50,864 nt of DNA from a virus (Duplodnaviria > Heunggongvirae > Uroviricota > Caudoviricetes): the IMG/VR virus record IMGVR_UViG_2695420685_000015; one strand, given 5' to 3'. Below are positions 6,670 through 15,884 of the stretch, piece after piece. The first letter of the stretch is position 1, and each line of letters begins with the position of its first letter. The notes under the pieces were generated by a model. It was not told where the DNA came from and did no database searches. It saw only the letters and a program-made list of their open reading frames with translations. The position numbers were made by a program, and so were the translations under genes.

Positions 6670-7067
6670 GCAAGATTGACTATCAGGCACTGCGTGAGGC
6701 GGCAGAGCGTGCAATTCCGGCAATGGAACGCCTGTTAATGTTGCCAGTTGATGATGATCTGATAAGCGAACAGGAACTTAAAGATAGCGGTGTTGATATT
6801 GATGCCCTCAACGCCTTCAAATTTCTGGCCGGACCAGAAACCGTGCTGGCACTACTGGATGAGATCAACGCATTAGAGGAAACGCGTATCAACGATGTTT
6901 GCCGTATTGCGGAACTAACAAAACAACTGGAGTTGGCAAAATCAAAACTCAACGAGCAGCGTGAGTATTACGAGGGCGTTATCTCGGATGGAAGTAAGCG
7001 CATAGCCGCTCTTCTTCGCAAGGACAATCTTGCCAGCGCCACGAACATTGAAGGTGAAAGAAAATGA
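6666..7067 (+). CDS. hypothetical coiled-coil protein
   Basis: GTG start with AAGGAG RBS 7 nt upstream; 133 aa. Confidence 0.5.
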
Positions 7068-7912
7068 CCACATCGCACTCTGCTATTACCCAAGAAAAAG
7101 CCTTCAACATACTCGAACGACTAGAGACGCTCGCTACGGAGGAGGAGATATCCCCGGAGAAACTGGTTGAGTTCAGCCGTGTGATATTGCGTCGCAAGAA
7201 CGATATGGAGCGGCTGACATCTGGCGCTCCATCCTTATCAGTCAGGCGAACACTTTGTTGCAGCTTCTGCAACAAATCCCAGTACGCCGTCAAAAAGTTA
7301 ATTGCTGGGGACGCCGTTTTCATCTGCGACGAGTGTGGATGTGTGCAACAGAATTATCCGGGGAGAGAAAGAGGGATCAGCATGAAATTATCCAAATTTT
7401 CTGAGTTGGTGAATCGTATTTTGTCCAACAACCACAGCCATCGTCGCGATATGGATGTAACGATCGTTGTTCATTCGCCTGGTCGCATCGGTTCAACACC
7501 ATCAGTTGAGGTTCAGTCAATTAAGGCGGGTTTTGATTGGGATGCCGGGCAAGTGATGATTTTTCCATCACAGCCACTGACCACGCTAACACCAGAGCAG
7601 GTTGCTGATATCACTGATAGTGTGCGCAAAGGTCAGTCTTGGCACGCGTATCAGGAATACAAGAAGCATAAAGAGCAGTTGGAAAAATTGTCGATGGAGT
7701 TGGAAGCCGCTAAACAGCGGGAAAAAGATCTGTTTATGGAAAATGTTCGACTTAAGTCAGGTATAGCCGGTCTGATACACCTCGGTATTCGATATGCGGA
7801 TGTTGAGGTCATGAAAATTGCTGGAGATGCCCAGCTTTCTACTCCATGCACTGACAGCATCATAAACAGCATTGCAGCAGGCATTTTCACCAAAGAGGGG
7901 GCAGCACGATGA
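7064..7912 (+). CDS. ClpX-type C4 zinc-finger domain protein (ClpX N-terminal zinc-binding-domain homolog fused to unknown C-terminal region)
   Basis: [31 protein letters not shown] closely matches ClpX N-domain [29 protein letters not shown]; no AAA+ module in this 282-aa protein. Confidence 0.65.
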
Positions 7913-9517: not shown

Positions 9518-9825
9518 GCGGCACGATTTTGAAAAGTAAGTTAAGCACTATAGGCCTCACTTAGTTTTATCGCACCTAGCTGCAAATACCTTTGAGCTTG
9601 CCTTTGCAGTTGCAATATCTGTAGTCGCCAGATACTTACGGCACGATTTCGAGTTAAGGTAAGGTTTTAGAGTCACCAAAAACCTGGACTTAAATCTTCT
9701 TTGAGAACAACGATGTTTGGTAAATGGTCATTATTACCTAGCATGACGGCTCAACGTTTCTTGATGAATCCAGTACATTCGGTTAATCTTAGCTCAGTCG
9801 CCAGATACTTATGGCTCAGGAACAG
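9518..9825. repeat. intergenic direct repeats (CGCCAGATACTTAyGG and CGGCACGATTTyGAr)
   Basis: cggcacgattttgaaaag at 9519 and cggcacgatttcgag at 9639; gtcgccagatacttacgg at 9623 and gtcgccagatacttatgg at 9797. Confidence 0.5.
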
Positions 9826-9840
9826 AGGCGCAAACTCTGT

Positions 9841-9880
9841 TTCCTTTTAAAAAGCCCAGCCTAGTCAACTGGGCTTTTTT
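9841..9880. terminator. bidirectional rho-independent terminator
   Basis: aaaaagcccagcctagtcaactgggctttttt, A-run and T-run flanking a 7-bp GC stem. Confidence 0.7.
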
Positions 9881-10175
9881 AATGTCCGTTTTTAACCAAA
9901 TGTACCCACAATACCGCAACATCAGTGTCTTGCGAATTAAGATAGGATTTATAGAGACTATGTGCAAGTGCATAACTTTGTGGATAACTCGTAAAGGAAA
10001 AAGTGGTTTCCGCGGACATTAGTTCAGACAAGGAGTCTGGGAAAGTCAATGGGAAGTAAAAATTTGTTAAAAATAACGTTTGTTGGAATTGTATATATTT
10101 ATGCCTTTCAATAGTTAGCATCTTATTAACATCTTTTTTAAGAGATAGAGTTCAAAAATATATAGCTTCAACATG

Positions 10176-10195
10176 TACTGTATGCATATACAGTA
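10176..10195. promoter_or_regulatory. LexA (SOS) box
   Basis: tactgtatgcatatacagta matches TACTGT-(AT)4-ACAGTA consensus; 17 nt upstream of ATG 10212. Confidence 0.8.
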
Positions 10196-10211
10196 TTAAG
10201 AGGCGAGTATT

Positions 10212-10601
10212 ATGGGCTTCCCTTCTCCTGCGGCGGATTATGCTGAGAGCCGTATTTCTCTTGATCAGCAGATAATTAGACATCCTTCAGCGACCTACTT
10301 CATGAGGGCGGCTGATAGTCATCATCGTGAGGGAATATTGCAGGGTGCATTGCTGGTGGTCGATTCCTCACTGACTCCTGTTGATGGATCTCTTCTTGTA
10401 TGTGCTCTGGATGGGGAATATCGCGTAAAAAGATACCGGAAGTATCCACGTCAGCATCTGGAGGATTTAAGAACTGGTAAGAAGGAAGCATTGCCAAAGG
10501 ATGATGATGGATGCACGGGCAGCAATGCCGTGTTTGGTGTGATCACTCACATTATCAACGACGCAAGAAGTGGCGAGTTTGATGATTGTCCTGTGATGTA
10601 G
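10212..10601 (+). CDS. UmuD-prime-like (pre-cleaved UmuD / HumD-like) S24-family protein
   Basis: Starts MGFPSPAADY, corresponding to the UmuD-prime N-terminus after the Cys24-Gly25 cleavage site; HPSATYF and DS/K catalytic positions retained; C-terminus divergent; no umuC partner. Confidence 0.75.
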   Translation: MGFPSPAADYAESRISLDQQIIRHPSATYFMRAADSHHREGILQGALLVVDSSLTPVDGSLLVCALDGEYRVKRYRKYPRQHLEDLRTGKKEALPKDDDGCTGSNAVFGVITHIINDARSGEFDDCPVM

Positions 10602-10612
10602 GAGAACTGTTT

Positions 10613-10639
10613 AGGTGGTGCATTGCACCACCTTTTTAT
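10613..10639. terminator. bidirectional terminator between UmuD-prime-like gene and apbC
   Basis: aggtggtgcattgcaccacct hairpin then ttttta. Confidence 0.65.
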
Positions 10640-11739
10640 CACACTGCGCGGAATGCGATTTCGCCAGGTATTACTTCACCTTGCCAATACATTTGGGCAG
10701 CAACGCGATCTGCGAGGTCACGATAAATAGCCGTAAATTCGCTATCTGGACGACTAATAACGGTTGGTGTTCCGTTATCCAGATCTTCACGAAGAGAGAT
10801 ATGAAGTGGCATTTGGCCTAACAACTGCGTGTTGTATTTCTCGGCCAGTTTCTGTGCGCCACCGGTGCCAAAAATTGGCTCGTGATGACCGCAGTTACTG
10901 CAAATATGCACACTCATGTTTTCGACGATACCTAGTACCGGCACTTCGACTTTTTCGAACATCACAATGCCTTTCTTCGCATCGATCAGCGCGATGTCTT
11001 GCGGCGTAGTTACCACAACCGCACCAGTTACAGGAATGTTCTGCGCCAGCGTCAACTGAATATCACCAGTGCCCGGCGGCATATCGAGAACGAGATAGTC
11101 CAGATCAGGCCATAGAGTTTCCTGCAACATCTGCATCAGCGCCTTGCTGGCCATCGGTCCACGCCACACCATTGCATTGTCGTCGGTGACCAGATAACCA
11201 ATAGAGTTGGTTGCCAGGCCATGAGACATGATAGGTGCCATGTGAGTACCGTCAGGTGAGGTTGGACGTTGGTTTTCCGCGCCCAGCATGGTTGGAATTG
11301 ATGGACCATAGATATCGGCATCCAAAATACCAACTTTCGCACCTTCAGCAGCCAAAGCCAGTGCCAAGTTTACTGCTGTGGACGATTTGCCTACACCGCC
11401 CTTGCCTGAGCTTACGGCGATAATATTCTTAACACCATTAATGCCTGGTTGGTTTTTGACGCGCTTAAGCGTGGCAATGTTGTACGACAGCTTCCAGTCA
11501 ATAGCCTTTGCGCCAGTGATACGGAGCAGATCACCACTACATTGCTCTTTCAGGTCTTCAAAAGGCTTATTCCACACGAAAGGCATGATTAGTTCGACAT
11601 GCAGTGTGTCATCCATCAACGCAACATGGTGTAACGCTTTAAGCGTAGTCAGGTTGTGTTTCAGGGTTGGGTGCTGAAAATTAGCCAGCGTACCGGCTAC
11701 CATTGCTCTCAGGGCATCCGGCGATTTGGACTCGCTCAT
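10639..11739 (-). CDS. apbC: iron-sulfur cluster carrier ATPase ApbC/Mrp
   Basis: 366 aa; deviant Walker A SSGKGGVGKSSTAVNLA, C-terminal CSNCGH motif; AAGGAGA RBS; from memory near-identical to E. coli Mrp. Confidence 0.95.
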   Translation of the reverse strand: MSESKSPDALRAMVAGTLANFQHPTLKHNLTTLKALHHVALMDDTLHVELIMPFVWNKPFEDLKEQCSGDLLRITGAKAIDWKLSYNIATLKRVKNQPGINGVKNIIAVSSGKGGVGKSSTAVNLALALAAEGAKVGILDADIYGPSIPTMLGAENQRPTSPDGTHMAPIMSHGLATNSIGYLVTDDNAMVWRGPMASKALMQMLQETLWPDLDYLVLDMPPGTGDIQLTLAQNIPVTGAVVVTTPQDIALIDAKKGIVMFEKVEVPVLGIVENMSVHICSNCGHHEPIFGTGGAQKLAEKYNTQLLGQMPLHISLREDLDNGTPTVISRPDSEFTAIYRDLADRVAAQMYWQGEVIPGEIAFRAV

Positions 11740-11896
11740 CCCGTCTCCTTTATTTTAATTTGCGCAATTGTCGCCTTGTAGTGTACTCCAGCTGCGACAT
11801 TTAATCATTTATGAGAAATGCTGTTATCACATGGCAGACATAAGGCCATTTTGTTACTATCAAGCCCCTTTTCACTACAAAGAAGTAATGCCTACT

Positions 11897-13930
11897 ATGA
11901 CCCAAGTCGCGAAGAAAATTCTGGTGACGTGCGCGCTGCCGTACGCTAACGGCTCAATCCACCTCGGCCATATGCTGGAGCACATCCAGGCTGATGTCTG
12001 GGTTCGTTACCAGCGAATGCGCGGCCACGAGGTTAATTTCATCTGTGCCGACGATGCCCACGGTACGCCGATCATGCTGAAAGCACAGCAACTTGGTATC
12101 ACACCGGAGCAGATGATTGGCGAAATGAGTCAGGAACACCAGACTGATTTCGCAGGCTTTAACATCAGCTATGACAACTATCACTCGACGCACAGCGAAG
12201 AGAACCGTCAGTTGTCTGAGCTTATCTATACTCGCCTGAAAGAGAACGGTTTTATTAAAAATCGCACTATCTCTCAGTTGTACGACCCGGAAAAAGGCAT
12301 GTTCCTGCCGGATCGTTTTGTGAAAGGCACCTGCCCGAAATGTAAAGCGCCAGATCAATACGGCGATAACTGTGAAGTTTGCGGCGCGACCTACAGCCCG
12401 ACTGAACTGATCGAGCCGAAATCGGTGGTTTCTGGTGCTACCCCGGTAATGCGTGATTCTGAACACTTCTTCTTTGATCTGCCCTCTTTCAGCGAAATGT
12501 TGCAGGCATGGACCCGCAGCGGTGCGTTGCAGGAGCAGGTGGCAAACAAAATGCAGGAGTGGTTTGAATCTGGTCTGCAACAGTGGGATATCTCCCGCGA
12601 CGCACCTTACTTCGGTTTTGAAATTCCGAACGCGCCGGGTAAATATTTCTACGTCTGGCTGGACGCACCGATTGGCTACATGGGTTCCTTCAAGAATCTG
12701 TGCGACAAGCGCGGCGACACTACCAGCTTCGATGAATACTGGAAGAAAGACTCCACCGCCGAGCTGTACCACTTCATCGGTAAAGATATCGTTTACTTCC
12801 ACAGCCTGTTCTGGCCTGCCATGCTGGAAGGCAGCAACTTCCGCAAGCCGACCAACCTGTTTGTTCACGGCTATGTGACGGTGAACGGCGCGAAGATGTC
12901 CAAGTCTCGCGGCACCTTTATTAAAGCCAGCACCTGGTTGAATCATTTTGACGCTGACAGCCTGCGTTACTACTACACTGCGAAACTCTCTTCGCGCATT
13001 GATGATATCGATCTCAACCTGGAGGATTTCGTTCAGCGTGTGAATGCCGATATCGTGAACAAAGTGGTTAACCTGGCGTCCCGTAACGCTGGCTTTATCA
13101 ATAAGCGTTTTGACGGTGTGCTGGCAAGCGAGCTGGCTGACCCGCAGTTGTACAAAACCTTCACTGATGCCGCTGAAGTGATTGGTGAAGCGTGGGAAAG
13201 CCGCGAATTTGGTAAAGCTATCCGTGAAATCATGGCACTGGCTGACCTGGCTAACCGCTATGTCGACGAGCAGGCTCCTTGGGTAGTCGCAAAACAGGAA
13301 GGTCGCGATGCTGACCTGCAGGCGATTTGCTCAATGGGCATCAACCTGTTCCGCGTGCTGATGACTTACCTGAAACCGGTACTGCCGAAACTGACAGAAC
13401 GTGCGGAAGCATTCCTGAATACGGAACTGACCTGGGATGGCATCCAGCAACCGCTGCTGGGCCATAAAGTGAATCCGTTCAAAGCACTGTATAACCGTAT
13501 CGACATGAAACAGGTGGAAGCATTGGTGGAAGCGTCTAAAGAAGAAGTGAAAGCTACTGCCGCGCCAGTTACTGGCCCGCTGGCAGACGACCCGATTCAG
13601 GAAACCATCACCTTTGACGACTTTGCCAAAGTTGACCTGCGCGTGGCACTGATCGAAAACGCAGAGTTTGTTGAAGGTTCTGACAAACTGCTGCGCCTGA
13701 CGCTGGATCTCGGCGGTGAAAAACGCAATGTCTTCTCAGGCATCCGTTCTGCTTATCCAGACCCACAGGCACTGATTGGTCGTCACACCATTATGGTGGC
13801 TAACCTGGCTCCGCGTAAGATGCGCTTCGGCATCTCCGAAGGTATGGTGATGGCTGCTGGCCCCGGCGGGAAAGATATCTTCCTGTTAAGCCCGGATGCT
13901 GGTGCTAAACCTGGCCACCAGGTTAAGTAA
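11897..13930 (+). CDS. metG: methionyl-tRNA synthetase
   Basis: 677 aa from ATG 11897 (track start 11768 is an upstream extension); [15 protein letters not shown] motif, KMSKS motif, CPKC...CEVC zinc knuckles, C-terminal tRNA-binding domain; from memory ~99% identical to E. coli MetG. Confidence 0.97.
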
Positions 13931-13950
13931 TTAAGCAACCTCTGTTCGCA

Positions 13951-14092: not shown

Positions 14093-14392
14093 ATGTTGAA
14101 CATTACCCAAGCCTACCAGGTGGCATTGATCAGTTCATCTCATACATCAGAGGAAGATGCTCGCCGATTCATGATCGCAAGCAATGAGCTGGATTGGGTT
14201 TCACAAATTGATGGCGGTTGTATTGTCCACGCCGGGTTACAGGATGATGTCTGGAAAGACGACTTGCGTCGATATGGTATATCCGAAGGCGCGATTGCTA
14301 ACATTCAGAAAGTACTTGATGTAGGCTTTGACTCTGTACATTTTGATTGTGGTGCGCCGATCGTTGAAGGGCTTGAGTGCTGGTGTTGGTAG
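14093..14392 (+). CDS. hypothetical protein
   Basis: ATG 14093 with GGAG RBS (track start 14084 is GTG); 99 aa. Confidence 0.5.
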   Translation: MLNITQAYQVALISSSHTSEEDARRFMIASNELDWVSQIDGGCIVHAGLQDDVWKDDLRRYGISEGAIANIQKVLDVGFDSVHFDCGAPIVEGLECWCW

Positions 14393-14523
14393 AGTGTATA
14401 AGCGGATCAATGAGTTACGGAAACAGTTAATAATGAGGAGCTTGTAATAAGCTGTATACCCTAGAAAAGCTAGACTAGGGAATAAAATGACGTGAAACTG
14501 GGCGAGACAGTAAATAATTCCGA

Positions 14524-15753
14524 ATGATAATTGAACAAATAACCCCTTGCTCGGAGCTTGGAATGACTGATACCGCTTTTTCAAAATCGTTACAAAAAGA
14601 AGTCGATCCTGAGCAGTACTTGGCGCTAAAGAATTTAGATGACAGCTCGGTTCATGCTATTGCCCGTGACGATATCATCTGCCCCATTTGCAAAGTTGGA
14701 GGTGGTTCGTTCGTTAGAGCCACTAGGAATGGTGGCTATCACAAGAAGGCGCATTTCAGATTTACCGGTGAAGATGGTCAAGGCCATCATCCATCATGTG
14801 ATTTCTATGGAGATAGACTAACATCTGAGGTGAAGCAGCACCTTGTCTCATTCACAAAAGATCGAACAAAGTATTCGCAGGTAATACGAAAGCTGGTCTG
14901 TGCCGGCATACAGGAAGGGATATTTACTCAAGAAAAAATGTGGCAGATGAGGGAATGGTTCTTCAATAAGCGAAAGGATTCCACATTTGAAATATGGTTA
15001 GAAAGCGAGCATTTAGACTGGCTTTATTATATTAGTGGGTTACGTGATGCATATCTAGCATGGACAACTCCTGATATTCTACCTTTCGCGCCCATTCAGG
15101 TTACTGTGCCTGGTTTTTCTTGGAAGCGTGCGATTGACAAAGAGGTGCTAAGAGTTCACATCAAGACTCTCCAGCAATTGCGTGAAATTTCAGTCTCACA
15201 TAGAGACATTGCTGTAATCTTAGAACACATAAACAATAATCGTGACCGCACAATTCTCGATCCATCGCATTTGGAGGACGAGATAAGTAAGACCTGTAAG
15301 CTTACTAGTTTTGTGATGGGCAATTACATTGAGTTTCAGACAAAAACGGTTAGCGACAGAGCATACGGGGAAGCTAAGTTTCTGGCATTTGCAGCACTTT
15401 TGTTGTTCGTGTCAGATTGGGACCTCAACATTGCTATTGGTAAGTTTTCTAAGATTGCCAGAGTGAAGGAGGTTGATGACATGCTGGCTGGTAATTTCAT
15501 TGGTCTTAATCCTTACTTCCGATACGACCTGGCTAATGCAGTGAAGAGATTGCAGGATAACTGGCCGATTGAATACCAAGAGTTGGAGCATTGGAATGTT
15601 GAGAAATCCATGCGTGACGCATATGAAAAGTGGCGTGCGACAGAGCCTGAATTCGCTCCACCCCTATTGCCAGACTTGTATATTGCCAAACATGAGAAAG
15701 AAGTCGCACAAGACGAGCAAGTCAGGCAGTGGATTAAGAACGGGGATGTTTGA
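14524..15753 (+). CDS. hypothetical protein with Cys/His zinc-ribbon-like motif
   Basis: 409 aa; CPICK...HHPSCDFY cluster; start could instead be ATG 14563. Confidence 0.55.
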   Translation: MIIEQITPCSELGMTDTAFSKSLQKEVDPEQYLALKNLDDSSVHAIARDDIICPICKVGGGSFVRATRNGGYHKKAHFRFTGEDGQGHHPSCDFYGDRLTSEVKQHLVSFTKDRTKYSQVIRKLVCAGIQEGIFTQEKMWQMREWFFNKRKDSTFEIWLESEHLDWLYYISGLRDAYLAWTTPDILPFAPIQVTVPGFSWKRAIDKEVLRVHIKTLQQLREISVSHRDIAVILEHINNNRDRTILDPSHLEDEISKTCKLTSFVMGNYIEFQTKTVSDRAYGEAKFLAFAALLLFVSDWDLNIAIGKFSKIARVKEVDDMLAGNFIGLNPYFRYDLANAVKRLQDNWPIEYQELEHWNVEKSMRDAYEKWRATEPEFAPPLLPDLYIAKHEKEVAQDEQVRQWIKNGDV

Positions 15754-15884
15754 GTGTAATTAGCTTAATCAATCAGTTGATAATGGCGGTCACAATTTGA
15801 TTCTTTTCTATAAGAATCCGTTGATCGCCACTACTCTTCTTCCATACCTGCAATCACACCTTTAAATATCAATAGGTTAACGTT

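Follow-up and report, generated by a model that had tools for sequence, protein, structure and literature searches.

A predicted LexA-controlled humD cassette on an SSU5-group phage-plasmid encodes a UmuD'-like protein made without the N-terminal arm

We analysed a stretch of viral DNA of 50,864 nucleotides, referred to here as the window, and found in it a 129-codon gene that is an ordinary member of the described HumD family. A first-pass annotation had proposed that this gene encodes an analogue of UmuD' in already cleaved form, and the sequence comparisons reported here support that interpretation. We consider it likely, with a probability of roughly 0.8, that HumD released by the SOS response works as a ready-made UmuD' together with the UmuC of the host. 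The locus itself is probably a self-contained monocistronic humD cassette, consisting of a predicted LexA operator, a Shine-Dalgarno sequence, the 129-codon open reading frame (ORF) and a terminator. The features of the locus are the following:

9858-9875, plus strand: hairpin followed by a T-run, resembling an intrinsic terminator and closing the upstream operon (terminator scan)
9963-10086, plus strand: conserved non-coding segment with homology to the DnaA-box region that precedes hot in P1
10167-10194, plus strand: weak candidate sigma-70 promoter overlapping the predicted LexA box (7/12 in a relaxed scan)
10176-10195, no strand assigned: predicted LexA (SOS) box TACTGTATGCATATACAGTA (consensus match and matrix score)
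10198-10203, plus strand: Shine-Dalgarno sequence AAGAGG, 8 nt before the ATG (read from the sequence)
10212-10601, plus strand: humD coding sequence, a UmuD'-like subunit of 129 amino acids without N-terminal arm (HMM and alignment)
10613-10643, plus strand: terminator hairpin with the tail TTTTATCACA, the hairpin proper spanning 10613-10633 (terminator scan)

The assignment to the HumD family was based on protein models and on close relatives among phages. The NCBIfam equivalog NF051876, named 'HumD family translesion DNA polymerase', matched the product over its full length (model positions 1-129) with 219.8 bits, the cutoff being 120, and the protein shares 92% identity with HumD of phage P1. 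The comparison with P1 HumD drawn in the first-pass annotation was thus well founded, and the gene is a HumD orthologue. The Pfam family Peptidase_S24 (PF00717) was recognized over residues 1-80, with 37.9 bits at a gathering threshold of 23.3, and the PHROGs label for the product is 'UmuD-like'. In tblastn searches of phage records, Escherichia phage Cyrano was 100% identical, followed by the HumD proteins of P1, RCS47, SJ46 and D6 with 91.5-93% and by N15 gp26, phiKO2 gp23, HK140, HK639 and others with 60-71% identity. The family is already known, with a curated NCBI model and the HumD annotation of an identical protein in RefSeq. The RefSeq HumD-family protein WP_000506720.1 lies at the corresponding position of a plasmid in which the 801-bp humD region is 99.9% identical at the DNA level.

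Two neighbouring identities were considered and rejected. A LexA-type repressor is not encoded, as the LexA model TIGR00498 gave 27.2 bits against a cutoff of 110.95, aligned with the S24 part alone (model positions 91-166), and the N-terminal winged-helix DNA-binding domain is absent. Nor is the product UmuD proper: it reached 87 bits with the UmuD subfamily model NF007621/PRK10276, below the cutoff of 110, it has neither the N-terminal arm nor the Cys24-Gly25 self-cleavage site, and the gene is not part of an operon with umuC. A PADLOC search for defence systems with HumD returned no match. The AlphaFold2 model, computed from a low-diversity alignment of 30 sequences, had a mean pLDDT of 55.7 and a pTM of 0.46 and was judged unusable.

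The most distinctive part of the original proposal, that the product starts at the cleavage position of UmuD, was confirmed by alignment. HumD begins with MGFPSPAADY, and in a search of solved structures its Gly2 paired with Gly25 of the full-length UmuD chain 8gmt_B and, in the UmuD' crystal chain 1umu_A, with residue 1; UmuD' structures were matched with E = 7e-23. Gly25 of UmuD directly follows the RecA-stimulated cleavage site. An in-frame TAA is located four codons 5' of the ATG, which rules out a longer UmuD-like N-terminus and excludes the short N-terminus as an annotation artefact of a longer UmuD. The Gly25-equivalent start is also found in 105 of 120 cluster representatives. Moreover, all eight solo phage homologues that we compared (P1, N15, phiKO2, HK140, HK639, Enterobacter MII_001, Aeromonas pAEv1818 and Hafnia yong1) start at the same residue, with nearby in-frame stops upstream. 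The GAGG of the Shine-Dalgarno sequence is likewise kept in relatives.

The near-consensus LexA box that had been noticed before the gene proved to be exceptional within the window. TACTGTATGCATATACAGTA has two mismatches to the 20-mer LexA consensus TACTGTATATATATACAGTA and is the only site with three or fewer mismatches across the window, and none of 100 dinucleotide-preserving shuffles gave a match to the consensus. We also scored the site with a weight matrix of 24 E. coli SOS boxes, the training sites of which range from 11.8 to 25.4 bits. On this matrix TACTGTATGCATATACAGTA reached 24.8 bits, a value among the top three of the training sites, against 10.6 bits for the second-best site of the window. 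A gap of 16 nt separates the predicted box from the humD ORF.

The box is also conserved among relatives. We assembled a close-relative set of 80 viral contigs encoding proteins 91-100% identical to HumD, in P1-type (phd downstream), SSU5-type (apbC downstream) and mosaic contexts, and all 80 carry CTGT-N8-ACAG at 34-37 nt 5' of the ATG, even though their upstream sequences fall into 30 distinct variants. The CTGT and ACAG arms are constant and the central octamer differs (ATGCATAT, ATGTGTAT, ATAAATGA, ATGAATAA, ACAGATAA and others), which is the pattern expected for a LexA site. A box of 20-25 bits precedes all eight solo homologues as well, in most of them at -34 to -39; the outlying positions are -56 in pAEv1818, -64 in phiKO2 and -282 in HK140, where the box lies ahead of a small ORF. 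The identical 20-mer TACTGTATGCATATACAGTA precedes phiKO2 gp23 and the Enterobacter MII_001 homologue, and the P1 and phiKO2 records themselves annotate LexA sites at the corresponding boxes. From this we infer that LexA would bind the SSU5-type humD copy and that the gene would be SOS-induced.

The accompanying claim that the box overlaps the promoter fared less well. A strict scan for the sigma-70 consensus (at least 9/12) over 9700-10750 found no match, so that none lies between the upstream terminator and the ATG, and a relaxed scan yielded matches of 7-8/12 at most. The best candidate overlapping the box scored 7/12, with the -35 element TTCAAC at 10167-10172, a 16-nt spacer and the -10 element TACAGT at 10189-10194. 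Six distinct upstream sequence types retain a TTYAAY element where the candidate -35 lies. A promoter may overlap the predicted LexA box.

Homology to P1 DNA sets in ten bases 5' of the box, at 10166, and continues with 83% identity to 10600, where it halts at the stop codon. A second and weaker block of P1 homology is the non-coding segment at 9963-10086, which is 72% identical to positions 2830-2952 of P1 L002 and shows invariant columns across SSU5-type variants. The sole perfect DnaA box of the window, TTATCCACA at 9979-9987 on the minus strand, lies inside this segment, and the P1 record annotates DnaA boxes in the corresponding region. An Rfam search for non-coding RNA 5' of humD gave sub-threshold matches only, namely RNAI on the terminator hairpin with 24 bits against a gathering threshold of 47, and the fold z-score of the region upstream of humD was -2. 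We also considered a divergent LexA-regulated gene, comparable to lxr of P1 or the dinI-like gene of phiKO2. The sole minus-strand ORF upstream, 9879-10121 (80 amino acids), was rejected as such a gene: it has no Pfam match and is broken by stop codons in relatives. Hence, the predicted LexA box appears to serve humD alone.

The hairpin at 9858-9875 ends the upstream operon, and humD would thereby be insulated from read-through. On the other side, the downstream terminator consists of a 9-bp stem with six G-C pairs and a T-rich tail. Neither the P1 homology, with its end at 10600, nor the homology to apbC of E. coli K-12, which starts at 10643, covers this terminator. The terminators on both sides suggest that humD is a monocistronic unit. 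P1 HumD is alike in its length of 129 amino acids, in the MGFPSPAADY start and the SGEFDDCPV(M/I) end, in the LexA box about 36-39 nt 5' of the ATG and in the absence of an adjacent umuC. The settings of the two genes differ, as P1 humD is carried by a Punavirus, is accompanied by hot and the divergent LexA-regulated lxr and has phd-doc downstream, whereas the SSU5-type locus has neither hot nor lxr and is followed by apbC-metG. The SSU5-type arrangement therefore looks like the P1 arrangement minus hot and lxr.

The sequence shows the carrier to be not P1 but an E. coli phage-plasmid of the SSU5 group, about 110 kb in size. The closest complete record, NZ_CP027358.1, is a circular E. coli plasmid of 110,001 bp that is colinear with the window at 98-99% identity. 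It combines phage genes (terminase, portal, capsid, tape-measure and tail-fibre) with genes for RepB, ParB, DnaE, a DnaB-like helicase, a primase, a ligase and NrdAB, and further carries thymidylate synthase, dfrA51 and four tRNAs. The assignment to the SSU5 group follows from this colinear plasmid with its phage genes, from the large terminase of the window, which shares 96.4% identity with its counterpart in Salmonella phage SSU5, and from dfrA51, which was described from SSU5 (PMC12217456). Downstream of humD, at 10643-13931, an apbC(mrp)-metG pair is 88% identical at the DNA level to the E. coli K-12 chromosome; humD sits in a mosaic accessory region adjoining captured host genes.

The earlier statement that umuC is missing held for the window and for the whole 110-kb plasmid. 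In tblastn searches with E. coli UmuC, no match was better than E = 7.6 within the window or E = 0.46 within NZ_CP027358.1, in which we found no annotated Y-family polymerase either. An ORF of 409 amino acids at 14524-15753 was examined as a candidate umuC and rejected; it lacks any Pfam domain, does not resemble UmuC and belongs to phrog_12525 of unknown function.

The order of events that we envisage starts from the undamaged lysogen, in which host LexA would occupy the 20-bp box abutting the ribosome-binding site and keep humD off, as the sequence and its family-wide conservation suggest. DNA damage would activate RecA and trigger the self-cleavage of LexA, and humD would then be transcribed. 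The product would arise directly in the UmuD' form, given the alignment of its start with the Gly25 equivalent, and the slow RecA-dependent self-cleavage step would thereby be skipped. HumD would be expected to dimerise and, as for the P1 orthologue, to form a Pol V-like translesion polymerase with UmuC of the host, the expected partner because umuC is missing from the element. By orthology, lesions in the DNA of the host and the phage-plasmid could then be bypassed sooner or more strongly, accompanied by mutagenesis. P1 HumD is reported to be able to replace UmuD' functionally in SOS mutagenesis (McLenigan et al. 1999, as cited in PMC7092418).

We also asked how far HumD departs from UmuD. 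Identity to E. coli UmuD residues 25-139 is 42%, with 56% in the N-terminal and 28% in the C-terminal half, and 14 of the 64 residues of the C-terminal half, a tail of ten residues included, have no UmuD counterpart. The corresponding values against P1 HumD are 97% and 86%. The C-terminal half, which had been called divergent, is so relative to UmuD but not relative to P1 HumD, and the divergence is a signature of the HumD family. With its low identity and unmatched residues, this half may make partner contacts that differ from those of UmuD'.

The ten-residue C-terminal extension of the solo clade, SGEFDDCPV(M/I/L), is absent from UmuD and reads SGEFDDCPVM in the protein described here. Of 120 close cluster representatives, 108 have the pattern [DE][FWY]DDxPxx at the C-terminus, and none of the 43 full-length UmuD-like representatives does. 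With clustering at 50%, a looser acidic motif was recognized in 4 of the 15 solo representatives and again in 0/43 full-length UmuD-like ones. Some tail variants terminate with DDTPF or NLPF, and the C-terminal tip of E. coli SSB is DFDDDIPF. We found no discussion of the acidic tail of the HumD clade in the limited literature examined, and this conserved tail is the only thread of the analysis that we regard as having some potential.

The tail raises the question of whether the main task of HumD is not Pol V assembly but the manipulation of other replication or SOS partners through EFDDCPVM, so that replication of the phage-plasmid is favoured during SOS. The partners proposed are the alpha or beta-clamp subunits of Pol III, filaments of RecA, or proteins binding to the C-terminus of SSB. 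The occurrence of the motif in most close cluster representatives, its absence from full-length UmuD-like ones and the variants that recall the SSB tip would agree with such a role, as would the replacement of the Ser60 and Lys97 equivalents in several homologues, which indicates constraints unlike those of UmuD. The element also has its own DnaE, helicase and primase. Furthermore, umuD products are reported to disrupt the complex of Pol III alpha and beta (reference 82 in PMC4713147). We nevertheless regard this role as unlikely, as the P1 orthologue with 92% identity is reported to take over the function of UmuD'. The likeness to SSB is also partial, with a different register of the proline and the terminal residue, and P1, N15 and the lambdoid carriers have no dnaE of their own. 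The more specific idea that the tail is a functional peptide resembling the SSB tip, with HumD acting as an adaptor to tether UmuC of the host or to compete for replication and repair proteins that interact with SSB, seems quite improbable to us. If true, the phage or phage-plasmid would gain privileged control of lesion bypass during SOS.

Turning to the catalytic residues, Ser36 and Lys73 of HumD occupy the positions of UmuD Ser60 and Lys97. Together with the Peptidase_S24 match, this would allow HumD to be a still-active S24 peptidase or a RecA*-responsive sensor, which cleaves a partner or itself or reports induction and is not a structural subunit of a polymerase. Such an activity is highly improbable, since HumD has neither the arm with the cleavage site nor a DNA-binding domain (27 bits with the LexA model against 111), and the motif around the nucleophile is altered. 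In an alignment of 12 sequences, the full-length UmuD proteins carry GDSM, whereas the solo proteins are one residue shorter and read ADSH in P1 and the SSU5-type copy and GATH, ANTC, GSTY, GETI, AGQA or PDYC in others. At the Ser60 position, Thr, Ala or Tyr replace Ser within the solo family, and at the Lys97 position HK639 has Met, pAEv1818 and yong1 Arg. Catalysis thus appears dispensable and the dyad is not under family-wide constraint, as would be expected of a protein that never needs self-cleavage. A role in sensing induction, raised in the first-pass annotation, found nothing in its favour.

The humD genes are under strong purifying selection. The Nei-Gojobori dN/dS between the gene of the window and P1 humD is 0.043 with dS near 1. 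Synonymous divergence close to saturation indicates an old split from P1 and not a recent transfer. The ORF could also be read as the functionless, decaying remains of a former umuDC operon that has lost both ends, with the LexA box as a leftover. The missing umuD 5' end and umuC and the mosaic region beside captured host genes would agree with this reading, but it is effectively refuted by the selection signature. Further evidence against it comes from 80/80 relatives and several phage lineages, which keep the exact length, the start codon, the Shine-Dalgarno sequence and the arms of the LexA box, and from humD-like DNA in 902 of 5426 complete E. coli genomes (about 17%).

Several other UmuD-like systems were compared with the gene. 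E. coli UmuD', the accessory subunit of Pol V (1UMU, 1I4V, 8GMT), shares the homologous S24 domain and the start residue of the cleavage product, albeit arising via cleavage, whereas HumD is made directly without the arm. UmuD has Ser and Lys at the dyad positions, as HumD does, and its LexA operator is about as far from the start codon as the predicted one of humD. It differs in having GDSM, no acidic tail and umuC in cis, in contrast to the solo HumD with ADSH, the one-residue deletion and the tail. Parallels in other temperate phages are the solo UmuD'-like genes N15 gp26, phiKO2 gp23, HK140 gp28 and HK639 gp28, the products of which are 64-73% identical to the HumD described here in protein alignment. 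They share the truncated start, the upstream LexA box and the tail, and are terminator-flanked accessory genes between tail-fibre and partition or integrase genes. These four copies differ in having Thr at the Ser60 position, and in phiKO2 and HK140 the gene is paired with a dinI-like gene. LexA-boxed UmuD homologues with 43-47% identity also occur on the temperate Klebsiella phage ST846-OXA48phi9.2 and Salmonella phage Oslo, but these are full-length UmuD proteins with N-terminal arm and Cys-Gly site, umuC directly downstream and no acidic tail.

As the P1 HumD family has been characterised since 1999, the gene itself is of little discovery value, and its distribution adds some context. HumD cassettes of LexA box, ORF and terminator are common to unrelated phage-plasmid lineages (P1-like, SSU5-like and N15-like) and to lambdoid phages. 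In clinical E. coli carrying these elements, a widespread, SOS-inducible supply of UmuD' in finished form could increase the mutagenesis that follows DNA damage. This would bear on how resistance evolves under exposure to quinolones or trimethoprim, and the element also carries dfrA51. The humD-like DNA of the complete E. coli genomes lies on plasmids at 736 of 970 places. Among the matches listed, most alignments open where the LexA box has its first base, at query position 7-8.

The gene order around humD was mosaic across the 80 viral contigs carrying close HumD relatives. The gene phd was located downstream of humD in 54 of the 80 contigs and apbC in 23. Contigs combining the two kinds of flank, upstream or downstream, also occur, including a single contig (1/80) with the P1-type lxr upstream and apbC downstream. 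This mosaicism indicates that P1-like and SSU5-like phage-plasmids recombine at the humD locus.

The non-coding stretch 5' of humD (window 9963-10170) shows strong conservation: many alignment columns do not vary at all among SSU5-type variants. It holds the sole perfect DnaA box of the window (9979-9987). In P1, the DnaA-box region is found upstream of hot and is 72% identical to window 9963-10086. Some P1-like contigs bear a copy of the non-coding stretch about 1.5 kb 5' of their own humD (e.g., 807-1039 in the P1-like contig L050). Half of the LexA box is deleted in these copies, which looks like a recombination scar.

Directly 3' of humD, the phage-plasmid carries two host-like housekeeping genes:

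10639-11739, minus strand, apbC/mrp
11894-13930, plus strand, metG (methionyl-tRNA synthetase)

The DNA of this block (window 10643-13931) is 88.3% identical to mrp-metG of E. coli K-12, and the proteins share 94.8% (apbC/mrp) and 98.8% (metG) identity with their K-12 counterparts. Among the phage records listed, the contiguous humD-apbC-metG arrangement was observed only in the E. coli SSU5-group members Cyrano, CMS-2020a, and PhiR41_1, and the mrp-metG part alone was matched in a few other Salmonella, Pseudomonas, and Acinetobacter phage records.

At the protein level, the HumD clade has kept an acidic C-terminal tail, SGEFDDCPV(M/I/L), that UmuD does not have:

10569-10598, acidic tail, HumD residues 120-129

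Of 120 close representatives, 108 had the strict tail pattern, whereas a looser acidic motif was found in none of the 43 representatives that are full-length and UmuD-like. In some variants of the clade, the last residues are DDTPF or NLPF, which recalls the C-terminal tip of SSB. In our 12-sequence alignment of solo pre-cleaved HumD-like proteins and full-length UmuDs, the catalytic dyad of UmuD (in the region of HumD residues 34-37 and at residue 73) was not conserved among the solo homologues, every one of which lacks one residue of the GDSM motif. The Ser60 position is occupied by Thr in N15, phiKO2, HK140, HK639, and MII_001, by Ala in pAEv1818, and by Tyr in yong1; at the Lys97 position, HK639 has Met, and both pAEv1818 and yong1 have Arg.

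A second strong predicted LexA box lies outside the window, in the closest complete relative, the plasmid NZ_CP027358.1:

71325-71344 (21325-21344 in L006, a part of this plasmid), predicted LexA box CACTGTATAAGTAAACAGTA, 21.8 bits

A gene for a tyrosine recombinase/integrase (70195-71298, minus strand) begins 27 nt 3' of this box and may therefore be a second gene of the element under SOS control. Unlike the window, phiKO2 and HK140 have a dinI-like gene adjoining the humD homologue:

1181-1423 in the phiKO2 record (L089), gp22, dinI-like
910-1176 in the HK140 record (L090), gp26, dinI-like

In phiKO2, the dinI-like gene is transcribed divergently from a LexA site common to the humD homologue. 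As DinI limits RecA-mediated UmuD cleavage, its pairing with a pre-cleaved UmuD' gene is suggestive.

The window contains two further accessory ORFs:

7064-7912, plus strand, 282-aa ORF, ClpX C4-type zinc-finger domain (Pfam PF06689, 40.8 bits)
14524-15753, plus strand, 409-aa ORF, phrog_12525, family of unknown function

The 282-aa ORF sits 5' of humD within an ead/Ea22-like accessory gene block. UmuD' in UmuD heterodimers is degraded by ClpXP, and any connection with this ORF is speculative. The 409-aa ORF, which had no match in Pfam or PADLOC, is a variable accessory gene, since NZ_CP027358.1 has the surrounding segment (~14383-15770) but neither phage Cyrano nor the DG341 plasmid does.
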